Under the pieces are notes generated by a model, which saw nothing but the letters and a program-made list of their open reading frames with translations, had not been told where the DNA came from and made no database searches. Positions 26,149 through 62,845 of a stretch of DNA of 64,000 bases are shown in pieces. Position numbers and translations under genes: made by a program. How positions within the stretch are numbered: position 1 is the first letter of the stretch; every line of letters starts with the position of its first letter. The DNA comes from a virus: the IMG/VR virus record IMGVR_UViG_3300042556_001828, positions 1-64,000 of that record; one strand, 5' to 3'.

Positions 26149-28023
26149 TCAGGGCTTCCACCCACTTGTCGTTCCGGTCACGCCAAAGTTTTCGCCTTGT
26201 GCCAGCGCCGGAACATAACTGCTACCGGCGGTATTGCTCGTTAAACCGCGGTGTACGCTGTTCAGCAGGCCTTTTTCTTGGTACGACCCGAGCATGCGGG
26301 TCATCCAGTCAGGATCGTTGGAGATGTTCGACATGCCGCGTACCATTTCGGGCTGAAACGGCGGCGGCTCTCTGTGCGCTTGAATATTTGTAATGCCGTG
26401 CTGGCCCAAGGTTTTAACAACGTTTTTTGTGATTGGCGTGCCGACGGAATAATGCAGCGCGGGCTGTTCCAGATAGTGCCCAGAAAGCGTACTCGGCGCG
26501 CCGGCTACGCTCCCGTCGCGCGGCGTCCAGTTTCGCTCCAACATCGAATACGGCACGATATCGTCAGGGGAGTAGTCGCCGTGCTCGTCCGTCATGCGCA
26601 CGTGGTTAATCAAGCCGCGCGAAAGCAACTCAATGTTTCTGCGGTGGGCTGTAATACCGCTATTTTGCATCACCTGCCGCATCGCTTGGACAAAATAGCG
26701 GCGGCCTTCACCCACGCCTTTATGGCGGACAATTTCAGCTGGGTTCGGCATACCCTCCGAAATTGTGTCACCAGCTTCGATCTCGTCACCCTTTTTAACC
26801 GTAACGCCGCGGTCCGTTGGGACATAATGGTCTTGACCGTTAATTTGCACATAAAAGCCGCCCTGTGGCGCAGGACGCACTTCTTGGACATGCCCATCTG
26901 CCTGAGCGTGTGTTGCCCCGCCGGGAAACTTCTTCGGCACCTGTACAAGCGCGTTGAGCGCTTTAAAACCAGAAATCCCGCCTGCGCCACCGACGCCGCC
27001 AGAGTGCTTGGAGCTAATCTGACTTTGTGTGACAGGCTCTGAAAGCGCCTGCGCGGCTGCAATACCCACATAGTCTCCGACAGGCGGCAGATGGCCTTTT
27101 TCGCGATAGCCGACGTCATTTGCATAGACACCGCCGTCTTCTGGGCCGCCGACAATTGGGCTGCGCACTAAGATATCTTTAACGCCCATCTCTTTGATGT
27201 CGCGCATGATTTTGGGCGTCAGCACAGTATTGCGCTTGTACGGCCCTACGGGTCGCGACAGCATTGCGCCCTCGTTGTCGGGGTCGTCTATGTCCGTGGG
27301 AAAACCGCGCTCGTGGGCGTTGGCTAGGCGCTCTTGGTCTTGCTCGTCTTGGTCCGTGACAAGCAGTCTGTGCGCCATCTGCGTAAGCTGCTTGCCGTAG
27401 AACCCGGCGTCAGCTGTGGCGGTCTTCAGGTCAATTACACCCTTGCGGGTGCCGAACGCGCCGGCAAAGTACTCCACGGGCGTTAAGCCTTGGGCGTATC
27501 CGCGCATAACAGGAATTGGAATAGGCTCGCCGCGGTGGTCGAGATACTGCATGTCGGCGCCAAGGATCGAGTTCAGCTGGAACTTGTTGCCCACGCCGGA
27601 TCCAGCAATCTGGTGCGCTAACGGATTATCGTGCCCGTGGGCCTCGTTATACACATCATCCACAAGCTGCCGCTGCGCTTCCGACGCCAGCTTGAGTATT
27701 TTCGCATTGCGCTGCTCGTCGTTGAGGCCCCTATCCGCCAGAATCTGCCGCAACTGCTGTTTTACTTTCAGCTGCGTGTGCTGCGCCGCCAAACTCGGCC
27801 GCACGTCTTTCAGGCCGAACGATAAGCCGTTTGTTGTGTACGCGGAATCAAGCGCCACGTCATGAAGCTTTTTCATGACTTCGCGGTATTTTTCCGGGTA
27901 TTTCTTGGCTAATTCTGTCGCCAGCGCGCCCGTGTTTTTCTTGTTCAAAACGCGCGTATAGTCCCGCATGTCTTCCGGCAGCGCGTCATTAACCAGCAAC
28001 TGACCTAGCGTTGTTTTCAACAT
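26149..28023 (-). CDS. rpoC: DNA-directed RNA polymerase beta' subunit, C-terminal half
   Basis: TTLGQ, the bridge helix GLTPVEYFAGAFGTRKGVIDLKTATADAGF and the trigger loop GIAAAQALSEPVTQSQISSKHSGG all align with bacterial RpoC motifs. Confidence 0.9.
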   Translation of the reverse strand: MLKTTLGQLLVNDALPEDMRDYTRVLNKKNTGALATELAKKYPEKYREVMKKLHDVALDSAYTTNGLSFGLKDVRPSLAAQHTQLKVKQQLRQILADRGLNDEQRNAKILKLASEAQRQLVDDVYNEAHGHDNPLAHQIAGSGVGNKFQLNSILGADMQYLDHRGEPIPIPVMRGYAQGLTPVEYFAGAFGTRKGVIDLKTATADAGFYGKQLTQMAHRLLVTDQDEQDQERLANAHERGFPTDIDDPDNEGAMLSRPVGPYKRNTVLTPKIMRDIKEMGVKDILVRSPIVGGPEDGGVYANDVGYREKGHLPPVGDYVGIAAAQALSEPVTQSQISSKHSGGVGGAGGISGFKALNALVQVPKKFPGGATHAQADGHVQEVRPAPQGGFYVQINGQDHYVPTDRGVTVKKGDEIEAGDTISEGMPNPAEIVRHKGVGEGRRYFVQAMRQVMQNSGITAHRRNIELLSRGLINHVRMTDEHGDYSPDDIVPYSMLERNWTPRDGSVAGAPSTLSGHYLEQPALHYSVGTPITKNVVKTLGQHGITNIQAHREPPPFQPEMVRGMSNISNDPDWMTRMLGSYQEKGLLNSVHRGLTSNTAGSSYVPALAQGENFGVTGTTSGWKP

Positions 28024-42384: not shown

Positions 42385-42648
42385 TTACCGATTAAACATG
42401 AATATGATGTCGAGCATAAAGCGCAGGAGCACCGCCGCCCACGCGAGTACGCCGCTGATAGCTAAAAAAAGCACAAACCCGCTCGACAGCACAACGGGGG
42501 CTAATTTATGCACCGGAATATTTTTGAGCACCCGCCACGCCTTGACGTAGTCCAGCGCGGAGAGCGGCTCAGGCTGCGGCACCGGGGTTGGTGTCGGCTT
42601 CGGCTTCGGCCAAATCTTGTTGCGCAACGTGTCGAACACATTCGGCAT
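42385..42648 (-). CDS. Small membrane protein
   Basis: PKPKPTPTPVP linker and a C-terminal TM segment. Confidence 0.5.
   Translation of the reverse strand: MPNVFDTLRNKIWPKPKPTPTPVPQPEPLSALDYVKAWRVLKNIPVHKLAPVVLSSGFVLFLAISGVLAWAAVLLRFMLDIIFMFNR
42451..42511 (-). terminator. Terminator-like element, third copy of hairpin-T7-AGCTATCAGCG
   Basis: GCATAAA..CCCG..CGGG-TTTGTGC-TTTTTTT-AGCTATCAGCGGC, matching the elements at 61130 and 61979. Confidence 0.55.
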
Positions 42649-44062: not shown

Positions 44063-44134
44063 CTGCCTGACTAGGATTTGAACCTAGAACCTAGCGGTTA
44101 ACAGCCGCGCGCTCTACCGTTGAGCTATCAGGCA
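44063..44134 (-). tRNA. trnN: tRNA-Asn(GTT)
   Basis: TGCCTGA/TCAGGCA acceptor stem, GCTC/GAGC D stem, CT-GTT-AA anticodon loop and CTAGG-TTCAAAT-CCTAG T arm. No encoded CCA. Confidence 0.95.
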
Positions 44135-45553: not shown

Positions 45554-46588
45554 TCAAAGAATCTTGGCGGCGATCAAGCAGCCACGCGCCACAGCATGCA
45601 ACGGATCATTGGCGTGGCGCACTTCTTTGATAGGCAGCGGAAAATTATTCTCGGCGAGTTTCTTTTCAAACGTCTCCAGAAAGCCCTTGGCCCGCGTTGT
45701 CCCGCCTGCAAATGCTATCAATAACGGCTCTTTGAACTTGGGCAGCGCTTTGTGGCCCAGTAATGCCGCCGCCAGCTGCTTCGTGGTGTAGTCGATCAGG
45801 CGCTCGTAGTAGGCGCCCACCGCGGCTAATACGGGGTTCTCGTTCGCCTCGCCAATAGTGAAGTCCCCCTGCTCTTTCTCAGCCTGCACGACAGAGTCTT
45901 CTTCGCCAGTTGCCACAGCGGCCATTCTGTCGATCCAGTCGCCAGACTTGGTGGTCGAGAACAGCACCGTGGGCTCGCCGTTGAGCATGACACAGACGTT
46001 CACCATGCCAGCGCCCCACGAAAGCCCAATCCCCGTATAGTCGTCGTTGGCCAGCTCAGAGTAGCACAGCGCCTCGGCTTCGTTGATGGCCCGCGCAGCG
46101 TAGCCCTGCTCGGCGAGTACAGCTTTGACGACGTCTTCGTGATAGCCGACGTCAAAGTCTTCGTCGTCTTGGTCCACGGGCTGCGCTGGGACGCAGAACA
46201 CCAGCTTTTCGCCCTCTTCGGTGGCTTTGCCAGCCACTTCCTTGAGAATGAACGCCAGTACGCGCTTGGCTTCTTTCTCTTTCGGGGAGACAACGCCGCG
46301 GTACATGGGGCGCTTGGCAGATTCGTTGCGCTCGATGGCTTTATCAATGGCGTCTTGGCCGATGAGAATGAAACTCCCGTCAGTGTCTTTGACAAACACC
46401 TTGCCCTGCAGGCCCTTCTCAATCATCTTCGTGGCCACAGGCGTCGTGGGCTTGATGACGTAGAACGCGTCCCGGAAATCTTTGTAGCTGATAAATTCAG
46501 CCTTATCGTCGCTGGTGTAGCTGATCGGCTCCAAGCTGTCAGAGGCGAGGACGATAAAAGAAGTTCCGACGTCTAAACCCTTGGCCAT
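45554..46588 (-). CDS. Actin-like ATPase (MreB/FtsA superfamily)
   Basis: GLDVGTS, INEAEA, LSWGAGMVNV, AGGT and AVARG correspond to the five actin-fold motifs. Confidence 0.85.
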   Translation of the reverse strand: MAKGLDVGTSFIVLASDSLEPISYTSDDKAEFISYKDFRDAFYVIKPTTPVATKMIEKGLQGKVFVKDTDGSFILIGQDAIDKAIERNESAKRPMYRGVVSPKEKEAKRVLAFILKEVAGKATEEGEKLVFCVPAQPVDQDDEDFDVGYHEDVVKAVLAEQGYAARAINEAEALCYSELANDDYTGIGLSWGAGMVNVCVMLNGEPTVLFSTTKSGDWIDRMAAVATGEEDSVVQAEKEQGDFTIGEANENPVLAAVGAYYERLIDYTTKQLAAALLGHKALPKFKEPLLIAFAGGTTRAKGFLETFEKKLAENNFPLPIKEVRHANDPLHAVARGCLIAAKIL

Positions 46589-61129: not shown

Positions 61130-61174
61130 CGCTGATAGCTAAAAAAAAGCGCAGAGGCCCTTGTGGGCGTGCGC
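61130..61174 (-). terminator. Intrinsic terminator with a conserved downstream AGCTATCAGCG
   Basis: GCGCA-C-GCCC-ACAA-GGGC-CTC-TGCGC-T8. Confidence 0.85.
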
Positions 61175-61622: not shown

Positions 61623-61669
61623 GGCATAGATCTCCGCACCTGTGGGTTAGCTCAGCGGTTACGCAACAA

Positions 61670-61722
61670 CTGAAAGCTATAGGTGGTTCACTATATATGC
61701 CCGGATTTCGACTTTTATTTAG
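61670..61722 (-). promoter_or_regulatory. Candidate phage promoter, copy 1
   Basis: CTAAATA-N14-GGCATAT-N3-GTG-N6-CTATAGCTTTCAG, with the same architecture as 62431-62482. Confidence 0.65.
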
Positions 61723-61725
61723 ATA

Positions 61726-61803
61726 TCAAGTCCCCCACGCATCAGTCGCGTCGTCTTCTTCAATCTCGCCGAACATGTGCATGAATACATCCTCTATGTC
61801 CAT
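61726..61803 (-). CDS. 25-aa acidic micropeptide
   Basis: MDIEDVFMHMFGEIEEDDATDAWGT preceded by GGGAGGT. Confidence 0.45.
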   Translation of the reverse strand: MDIEDVFMHMFGEIEEDDATDAWGT

Positions 61804-61978
61804 GACGCACCTCCCGGGATATTGATATCTAAGCCCACGACTATTTTACTTGAACAGGGTGCCGGAGCTGCCAGACCAACAACGGTTTGCCGTAACTAGT
61901 TGTGGCTGTTGGGTTTACGTCACACGGCTAATAGTTGCGTGCCGTAAGTCCATTATTCACAACACTTTACGACGATTG

Positions 61979-62026
61979 GCCGCTGATAGCTAAAAAAAAG
62001 CACAGAGGCCCGTGAGGGCATGTGCT
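61979..62026 (-). terminator. Intrinsic terminator with a conserved downstream AGCTATCAGCG
   Basis: GCACA-T-GCCC-TCAC-GGGC-CTC-TGTGC-T8, with a compensatory stem change relative to the copy at 61130. Confidence 0.85.
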
Positions 62027-62443
62027 TTGGTGTCCCATGTTCTACGGTGGCGGACAGACACCTTTAGATGCGGGCTTTCGAGACGCCACGCCGCATCTGC
62101 CAGACTTTCACTGGCTCCCATTTGTGTCGGTGGGTTACCCAAATGCGCAGCGGTTTGATTTTACCGGCCTGCGTGCGCGCAACAGCCGGGGTTACGGGAC
62201 AAGTTTTACGCCATTACCGATTGGGCGAAAGGCTGCCGATTAACGCACGGCAGCACCACGTCCAAGAGTTTCACTGGACCCCATTTAATCGGTGGGTTTC
62301 CATCAAGGCTTTTTTTATACCCGCCTGAGCTTGTCCGACTGTTCCAGTGGTCGGGCACCTTATCCCCGTAGTTAACCGTACGGGTCGGTGTGTCAGCACA
62401 GGCAACACTTTTGGAAAAGCGCTGGCTGTGCTGACAGCTATAG
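61992..62443 (-). ncRNA. Candidate ~450-nt structured ncRNA with a duplicated two-hairpin module
   Basis: Lies between the promoter element and a terminator, has no credible ORF, and forms a near-continuous series of hairpins. Confidence 0.65.
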
Positions 62444-62482
62444 TTCTACACCTAATATGCCGGCTTTTTGCCCGGTATTTAG
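62431..62482 (-). promoter_or_regulatory. Candidate phage promoter, copy 2
   Basis: CTAAATA-N14-GGCATAT-N3-GTG-N5-CTATAGCTGTCAG. Confidence 0.65.
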
Positions 62483-62497
62483 GTGTGTTAGGCCTGC

Positions 62498-62845
62498 TCA
62501 TGCTTTGAGCCCGCCATGTTTCTCAATCACGGCTTCGACCACTTCGACGGGCACGTAGGCGTAGACCGTCTCTGTGGGGTCGTCGGAGTTCTCAGCGTAC
62601 GCCAGCAGCTCCTCCACGCGCTGAGACGGGTAACCGATCTCGACCTCCGTCCACGGCCCAATACTGTCGCGAGGAGCGCAGTAGTGGGTCTGGCTGGCCT
62701 GCACAGACAGCGACAAGCCATCCGCGCAGGTGATAGGCGCCACCTGCCGGAAGCCCCGCGCCTGCATGTAGGGAGTATTAAACTCGCCCTTCAGGTTCGC
62801 GGAATCGAGCAGGTAGGCATTCAGATCAAATTTAACAGCGGTCAT
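62498..62845 (-). CDS. Conserved phage hypothetical protein
   Basis: CADGLSLSVQAS..HYCAPR..VEIGYPS..VYAYVP, with an AAGGA SD. Confidence 0.8.
   Translation of the reverse strand: MTAVKFDLNAYLLDSANLKGEFNTPYMQARGFRQVAPITCADGLSLSVQASQTHYCAPRDSIGPWTEVEIGYPSQRVEELLAYAENSDDPTETVYAYVPVEVVEAVIEKHGGLKA

Follow-up and report, generated by a model that had tools for sequence, protein, structure and literature searches.

In bacterial sponge RNAs such as CsrB and RsmZ, and in phage decoys such as pseudo-ToxI and the RNA anti-CRISPRs, one short hairpin is repeated along a non-coding RNA, and a multi-site RNA of this kind could let a phage titrate a host protein. Larger structured RNAs are also encoded by phages, and two of these, GOLLD and ROOL, are reported to form homo-oligomeric RNA-only complexes (PMC12286853). 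The subject of this work is a unit free of open reading frames (ORFs) at positions 61992-62443, on the minus strand, of a 64,000-nucleotide (nt) stretch of virus DNA, hereafter the window, which is the first 64 kb of the 73,372-base IMG/VR record IMGVR_UViG_3300042556_001828. The unit lies between a two-box promoter motif and an intrinsic terminator and carries a repeated module of two hairpins. It is probably a functional RNA gene. Our leading interpretation, held tentatively, is that it is a ~455-nt non-coding structured RNA and a member of an unclassified family of ORF-free RNAs (370-700 nt) found in ~200-kb phages; that multivalent binding of a partner is how the RNA works is a more doubtful proposition.

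The family is new but of a known kind, and it stands beside GOLLD and ROOL. Like those RNAs, the one described here is phage-encoded, ORF-free, multi-hairpin and several hundred nt long, its function is not known, and its source is lake water, as for GOLLD. It differs from them in giving no match to the Rfam model of either, even at expectation values (E) up to 10, in the smaller size of both this RNA and its relatives, and in that the conserved part is a module of 41-47 nt rather than a large shared architecture. The preliminary description had called the RNA novel, and no family was matched when cmscan was run against Rfam 15: at gathering thresholds the whole window returned only a transfer RNA (tRNA-Asn) at 44063-44134, and at E up to 10 the interval 61800-62600 returned only chance-level scores for mir-3170 (24.2 bits vs 98) and sar (14.3 vs 43). 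From the CsrB/RsmZ sponges the RNA differs in its GGA content (7 occurrences vs 8.1 +/- 2.4 in shuffles, and 1 A.GGA vs 1.9), from ToxI and pseudo-ToxI in having no head-to-tail array of 34-36 nt (Tandem Repeats Finder gave 0 rows at a minimum score of 30), and from sponge RNAs in general in that its relatives carry just one module. There is no Rfam match to 6S RNA either, and the minimum free energy (MFE) structure is multi-branched rather than a long rod with a central bubble. As to a possible riboswitch or attenuator role, the terminator here is generic and the module stands at the 5' end, in the middle or at the 3' end in different phages. A CsrB-type GGA sponge, a ToxI-like array, antisense pairing to the phage's own messages and internal kissing loops were each tested and set aside; the best antisense target of the RNA in the phage's own genome was 14 nt long (E 0.1), and the annotation pointed to neither a candidate partner nor a CRISPR repeat or toxin gene.

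The features that the preliminary description had placed on the minus strand were all present, and the layout of the unit, in the direction of transcription, is as follows (bp, base pairs).

62455-62482, minus strand: two-box promoter-type motif, CTAAATA (62476-62482), a 14-nt spacer and GGCATAT (62455-62461)
62332-62443, minus strand: 5' domain, a 20-bp hairpin at 62391-62436, a nested hairpin CACC[..CCCGUA..UACGGG..]GGUG and a hairpin CCGAC[CACUGGAACA]GUCGG
62260-62300, minus strand: module copy 1, hairpin A and hairpin B
62280-62296, minus strand: hairpin A of copy 1, CCCA[CCGAUUAAA]UGGG
62260-62279, minus strand: hairpin B of copy 1, GUCCAG[UGAAACUC]UUGGAC
62232-62254, minus strand: GC-rich hairpin C1, GCUGCCG[UGCGUUAAU]CGGCAGC, in the MFE and centroid structures
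62098-62138, minus strand: module copy 2, hairpin A and hairpin B
62117-62134, minus strand: hairpin A of copy 2, CCCA[CCGACACAAA]UGGG
62099-62115, minus strand: hairpin B of copy 2, GCCAG[UGAAAGU]CUGGC
62066-62098, minus strand: GC-rich hairpin C2, AGAUGCGG[...]CCGCAUCU, in the MFE and centroid structures
62032-62055, minus strand: third, partial copy with hairpin A only, GUC(CG)CCA[CCGUAGAACA]UGGGAC, found by repeat search and regular expression and as a predicted hairpin
61992-62028, minus strand: intrinsic terminator, a stem-loop and then U8 (z score -2.49 for 61992-62060)
61983-61991, minus strand: the clade-wide signal AGCTATCAG, directly after the T-run of the terminator

The two full copies of the module lie 162-163 nt apart and agree in 32 of 44 alignment columns. 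A spacing of 162 nt had been proposed and is borne out, while the similarity reaches further upstream than had been thought, giving a repeat core of ~66-75 nt that includes an upstream GGCSGGUAWAAA..AAASC, and hairpin A occurs a third time. With 44 matches, the best 66-column window of the repeat exceeds all of 100 shuffles (mean 30.8, maximum 37); elsewhere in the 162-nt unit the similarity is at chance level only. Repeat periods in the RNA are 162 and 83 nt. The word CCACCG-N3/4-A[AC]AUGG occurs three times, always in this RNA (62281-62295, 62118-62133 and 62035-62050); the rest of the 73-kb record and a 123-kb relative have none. A GC-rich hairpin follows each full copy, as described before, and the loop word UGCGUUAA of C1 recurs in two relatives, in a predicted hairpin loop of the G032 RNA and, in G021, inside the loop of its modelled hairpin A. 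Beyond the terminator, at 61846-61925 on the minus strand, there is a faint, degenerate further repeat unit in which UGACGUAAACCCA and GUCUGGCAGCUCCGGC echo units 1 and 2, and the differences seen in related contigs cluster at 61931-61951, in the spacer just upstream of it.

The unit is non-coding. Its candidate ORFs have codon log-odds of -0.31, +0.19 and -0.06, against 0.46 +/- 0.22 for real genes and -0.71 for off-frames, and none has an AGGAGG-type ribosome-binding site (RBS) before it. The frame with the fewest stops (two in 150 codons), read through with X, found no relative of 'shorter' or 'near' length among 5.8 billion proteins, and a recoded stop codon is ruled out by the normal use of all three stops in 55 genes (TAA 27, TGA 20, TAG 8). 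The two module copies differ by indels of +1 and -1 that sit in loops and place near-identical letters in different frames, so that the peptides are unrelated (IKWGPVKLL vs TQMGASESL); because the shared letters are read in different frames, their conservation is at the nucleotide level. The claim that the region holds no credible ORF therefore stands on codon scores, the missing RBS, the missing protein relatives and the frame-shifting indels.

The unit has the order of an ordinary small gene cassette of its clade, with a two-box promoter, a 5' hairpin, a terminator and AGCTATCAG, and of nine delimited promoter-to-terminator cassettes it is the only one without an ORF that largely fills it (50 amino acids (aa) in 456 nt). 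Transcription would run from ~62447 to 61992. A promoter and a terminator of its own had been claimed for the RNA; the terminator is there, and the promoter is there as the two-box motif, with no sigma-70-like site on the RNA's strand. In the form AAATA-N14-GGCATA, the motif was found at 12 sites (in G000, in G002 and in loci of related phages), with a spacer of 14 nt in 12/12, and elsewhere it is usually followed by a 5' hairpin and then, 45-90 nt on, by an RBS and ATG. It may resemble the bacterial sigma-28 (FliA) consensus, the likeness being that of two short boxes at a rigid distance. Besides the copy before the RNA, the sites include 61695-61722 of the window and others in G002, L041, L072, L100 and L123, and in four two-box sites a further word, TA(TA)GCTNTC, stands 13-17 nt downstream. 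Three terminators in the record run directly into AGCTATCAG (61983-61999, 61133-61148 and 42456-42470), and T7AGCTATC is invariant in 7/7 sites of two phages while the stems differ (the window and locus L004, positions 258, 4094, 5318 and 6016); at all of them the hairpin, whose stems are unrelated between sites, is followed by T7-9 and then AGCTATC(A/G). The 16-mer T7AGCTATCAG occurs in at least 131 IMG/VR stretches, many of them on ~200-kb contigs. It may close the termination signal, or it may belong to the promoter that follows, as an upstream element.

A fold better than that of shuffled controls was expected for the RNA, and this holds for the whole RNA (z -2.70) and for its 5' domain (-50.8 kcal/mol vs -30.8 +/- 3.5 in shuffles; z -5.75; 0/200 shuffles equal), though not for the modules alone. 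The folding signal stems from the 5' domain together with the terminator end. The long 5' hairpin at 62391-62436, also part of the preliminary description, has 22-nt arms that are 86% complementary and is in both the MFE and the centroid structures. Since 5' hairpins generally follow this type of promoter, the big 5' hairpin is probably a stability element and not the functional heart of the RNA, and together with the terminator hairpin it would stabilise the transcript. Complementarity between loops is not above chance (14 self-complementary 7-mers vs 8.2 +/- 5.1 in shuffles); a candidate kissing or pseudoknot interaction of loop A1 CCGAUUAA with UUAAUCGG and AAUCGGU downstream is not kept in unit 2 and was dropped as being at chance level overall.

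The preliminary description had proposed a covariance model of the module, and such models, run on related phages, matched ORF-free RNAs with compensatory changes in hairpin B. The first model, R1, was built from the two window copies only and was run over partly overlapping sets of 50 and 45 related records reached through T7AGCTATCAG loci. It scores the window copies at 60.7 and 56.9 bits and matched one distinct record, G021, at 23.3 bits (E 0.0077 per genome), where the module lies in an ORF-free region of 370 nt (fold z -6.68) behind a variant promoter and directly before a terminator followed by UUUUUAGCUAU. With G021 added, the second model, R2, matched G032, where the module comes 35 nt after a canonical promoter and heads ~700 ORF-free nt (z -4.77). 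With G032 added in turn, the third model, R3 (52.8 and 49.4 bits on the window copies), matched G037 and G041 at 29.7 bits; these two are the same over the 527 nt compared, and in G037 the module comes 60 nt after a 74-aa gene and heads ~500 ORF-free nt (z -4.72). The G032 and G037 RNAs have three collinear blocks in common, and one of these led to G013, G104 and G105 (the 14-letter pattern of the block has at least 118 stretches, mostly chance, and 6 of the 118 listed carried the extended block). The G013 genome is complete (205 kb) and its module diverged (15.9 bits), while in G104 and G105 the module equals that of G032 in both score and sequence. In each of four related loci the module is the top match of R1. 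The RNAs of the family are thus ORF-free, strongly folded and 370-700 nt long, in related ~200-kb phages, and each relative carries the module once, at a varying place (5' end, middle or 3' end). An AACC..GGG hairpin A, an abutting UGAAA(C/G)U hairpin B, an ORF-free folded region and the transcription grammar of the clade, the marks proposed for membership, were found.

Other matches to the models were rejected: that in L165 is in a region without a gene boundary that is apparently coding, that in L166 is a long hairpin between two genes, and those in L254 and L256 are within a 603-aa ORF. The weak matches in L167, L255 and L257-L261 were left out of the family.

Covariation was measured in an alignment of six distinct modules, A10, in which 86.4% of cells are paired. 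Its covariation score is 0.593, against 0.217 +/- 0.067 in shuffles (0/500 reach it) and at most 0.100 when partners are slid. In hairpin B, five of the six pairs change on both sides: the stems are GUCCAG, GCCAG, GACCG, GUUGAG and GCCGA (5-6 bp), around a loop of the invariant form UGAAA(C/G)U, which is UGAAACU in 4/6, UGAAAGU in window copy 2 and UGAAACU(C) in copy 1. Hairpin A retains an AACC...GGG frame and a loop CAC..G.UUAAA, and its inner stem is compensatory between G037 (CCUGC/GUAGG) and G013 (CCUAU/AUAGG). The earlier statement that the loops are conserved while the stems vary is therefore right for hairpin B and wrong for hairpin A, whose stem is identical in the two window copies.

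The related RNAs have features of their own. The G032 RNA ends, at ~905-960 of L164 on the minus strand, in a tRNA-like T-arm UGGG[UUCGAAU]CCCA, where ARAGORN calls no tRNA or transfer-messenger RNA (tmRNA), and it contains two copies of a second module, GGUUC(G/A)UAAGUC..UCCCACGG.., which is common to G037 and G013. The G021 RNA (L163, plus strand, ~1320-1345 and 1395-1425) has an internal duplication of two CCUGU..ACAGG hairpins; after each comes the perfect Shine-Dalgarno-like word AGGAGGU, which no start codon follows.

This is probably a real, unclassified phage RNA family. If the loops are fixed while the stems and the position of the module drift, then the module would be expected to be a recognition element for a conserved partner, which is its most likely role and is suggested by this pattern of change. 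Such an element would be self-contained and would serve one partner, either a phage or host protein or the surface of another RNA. For the same reason, the two to three copies here would make the RNA multivalent, and, acting as a scaffold or a sponge, it may collect or titrate multiple copies of the partner.

Several observations weigh against this interpretation. The hairpin A stem, as noted, is the same in both full window copies, and shuffles fold as well as the repeat units (z -0.76 and +0.19) or the modules by themselves (z -0.07 and -0.90). The search was iterative and its first steps were weak: over ~95 records, the E value of R1 for G021 translates into roughly 0.7 chance matches expected, before context is considered, and R1 gives the modules of G037, G032 and G013 only 11.2, 10.3 and 7.8 bits. 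A10 is a model-fitted alignment in which a single RNA supplies two of the six rows, and the family has only about five distinct sequences. Outside the module, nothing detectable is common to this RNA and its relatives. The tie between the window and G021 therefore appears fair, and the tie between the window and the G032 group, which passes through an intermediate, appears weaker. G001 and G002, which have 68% identity in the neighbouring protein, do not have the RNA at the syntenic place or elsewhere; they are syntenic over 54.7-73.3 kb and have other small genes at its place. Finally, in a 3719-nt contig of a close relative (from a fourth run, X19) the interval 62032-62353, where both modules lie, is represented by 355 letters that are less than 80% alike. 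The same contig keeps 61700-62031 and 62354-62578, that is, the promoter, 62354-62443 of the 5' domain and the terminator, with 8 other letters over the 225 nt of 62354-62578 and the terminator kept at 100%. With its middle so unlike, the RNA body appears either to evolve fast or to have been swapped. Contigs of three other runs (X13, X16 and X18, compared over the parts of the stretch with contig cover) are identical or differ only downstream of the terminator.

Searches outside the family returned little. The RNA had no match in a phage GenBank collection (blastn, 'distant'), and blastn against the relatives G001-G003 gave chance matches of 17-20 nt only. Loci L022-L027, from a metagenome scan with the 115-aa neighbour, have no similarity to it, and in bacterial genomes there were 0 matches to the module pattern and 0 relatives of the 115-aa protein. 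IMG/VR was scanned by exact patterns, the covariance models being run on the related records. There, the relaxed module pattern and the terminator pattern each gave 0 matches, a pattern for the first hairpin gave 3 chance matches without hairpin B, and a 17-mer of the 5' hairpin gave 2 chance matches within a coding region; a stricter module pattern was present in 84 stretches, and among these G021 alone scored (52 bits; the others at most 16.3). Rfam returned nothing relevant on the related loci L163-L165, and ARAGORN found 0 tRNA or tmRNA genes in the region or in those loci. No description of this RNA appears in the titles and abstract openings of the papers searched.

The alternatives have to be weighed against the neighbouring genes, which are these.

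62498-62845: 115-aa gene, upstream of the RNA in the direction of transcription
Downstream of the RNA: a 25-aa acidic ORF, then a 145-aa membrane-type protein, then a 650-aa DUF6321 protein

The alternative that survives best, unlikely in our judgement but to be taken seriously, is that the region is a cis-acting untranslated region (UTR). As a long leader or 3' UTR it would act on the stability, processing or timing of the neighbouring messages, with the module as a processing or stability signal. In G037 and G013 the stop codon of a small gene lies ~60 nt before the start of the homologous region, no two-box motif intervenes, and the region extends to the terminator of that unit, so that the stand-alone arrangement proposed for the RNA is true of the window but is not a rule of the family. 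(In G037 and G013 that small gene is Zn-ribbon-like; it was not found in this record or next to the RNAs of G021 and G032.) In the window, no terminator separates the RNA from the 115-aa gene (stop at 62498), which leaves room for transcripts that enter from upstream; the 25-aa ORF, for all its strong RBS, lacks a canonical two-box promoter of its own after the terminator of the RNA; and 5' hairpins right after this type of promoter are general. On the other hand, a complete promoter motif stands directly before the RNA in both the window and G032, and the terminator is a generic cassette common to unrelated units. No alternative pairing with the terminator was found on reading the sequence, and no further search was made. 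The varying place of the module also fits a portable domain better than a fixed processing site.

Somewhat less probable again is that the region has no function of its own. It would then be a cassette that has decayed or stands empty, in an accessory region prone to recombination, its repeat the leftover of a partial duplication and its module a patch spread by recombination. If this were so, the differences among relatives between the 115-aa gene and the DUF6321 gene, the replaced or diverged middle of the RNA in the close relative, the chance-level folding of the repeat units and the faint further unit apparently beyond the terminator would all be expected, as would the family's limited and patchy occurrence, in about 8 of the roughly 100 related records that were searched. 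However, the stems of hairpin B are wholly different among phages while the loop is fixed and the pairing kept, which is unlike a recent transfer of a patch. The related regions are ORF-free and strongly folded (z -4.7 to -6.7), the read-through frame is without a protein relative and the indels between copies sit in loops.

A quite different function is conceivable if the module is a mimic of the tRNA elbow, a T-arm-like hairpin stacked on a second hairpin, and we consider this improbable. The T-loop of tRNA is a 7-nt loop of the pattern U-N-N-R-A on a stem of ~5 bp. Hairpin B has a stem of 5-6 bp and a 7-nt loop that fits U-N-N-R-A in 6/6 A10 sequences, a likeness read from the letters; the RNA has no acceptor stem, anticodon arm or CCA end. 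If the mimicry were real, the RNA would be a decoy or scaffold for a factor that recognises tRNA shape (conceivably a tRNA-cleaving defence nuclease, RNase P, a modification enzyme or a ribosomal site), with two to three module copies raising the dose. It would then be an RNA-only counter-measure or hijacking device of the giant lake phages, of an undescribed kind.

A DNA-level element, in which a phage DNA-binding protein would recognise the repeats as operators, partition sites or origin iterons, is very improbable. Three copies of a 15-16-nt word within 260 bp, unique in the record, and A-rich tracts in the repeat units would suit such an element. Yet the spacing within the site shifts by one base between copies, and the stem letters change in a complementary way across phages, which is a signature of RNA pairing and not of protein-DNA contacts; all copies lie on the transcribed strand between promoter and terminator, and cumulative GC skew has no turn at the locus. 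Least probable of all are one or two 50-aa proteins (62206-62358 and 61990-62142) with the repeat as a duplicated peptide: the nearly open frame, a GGGGA stretch before the GTG start of 62206-62358 and that ORF's score of +0.19 (off-frame 95th percentile -0.23, in-frame 5th percentile 0.11) speak for them, but near-identical DNA gives different peptides, the second ORF extends into the terminator stem and U-run, AGGAGG-type sites and protein relatives are missing, and in relatives the module sits in regions without a shared frame.

The source of the putative RNA gene is an uncultivated giant phage from lake water with its own multisubunit RNA polymerase. CheckV puts the completeness of the record at 36%, and the genome would therefore be roughly 200 kb. 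Nearly all genes of the record are on the minus strand, and 61623-62497 is among its three longest gene-free gaps. The polymerase is seen in a 1814-aa protein (28912-34356, minus strand) that fuses beta (Rpb2_6) and beta' (Rpb1_1/2) domains in one chain and in an adjoining gene (26149-28023, minus strand) for a further beta' piece, Rpb1_5. An actin-like protein of the Volactin family (E 5.9e-61) is encoded at 45554-46588 on the minus strand, and the record also encodes an SNF2-type helicase and PhoH. The 25-aa ORF at 61726-61803 (minus strand) is very acidic (MDIEDVFMHMFGEIEEDDATDAWGT), with a strong RBS and a gene-like codon score of 0.72, and its single difference in the relative's contig (61768) is at a third codon position. 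Just beyond the window, at 64537-64895 of contig C1 of G000 (minus strand), is a 359-nt gene-free stretch of irregular GGCAGG / CACGGCAGGC-like repeats. The stretch under study is present in lake-water or freshwater DNA runs of several studies; the runs listed include no RNA run.

Large structured RNAs of phages, GOLLD and ROOL included, are among the least understood of gene products, and a new family with a defined core offers an experimental handle on them. The module is 41-47 nt long with a fixed loop and a covarying stem, and its single copy in relatives against two to three here amounts to a natural dosage series. A further handle is the clearly marked transcription of these units, in a clade of phages equipped with its own RNA polymerase. 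These would ease the design of pull-down, structure-probing and deletion experiments once a host or a cultivable relative is found. The promoter and terminator grammar of the clade (CTAAATA-N14-GGCATAT; hairpin-T7-AGCTATCAG) also aids the annotation of transcription units in some 100 or more genomes of uncultivated giant phages.

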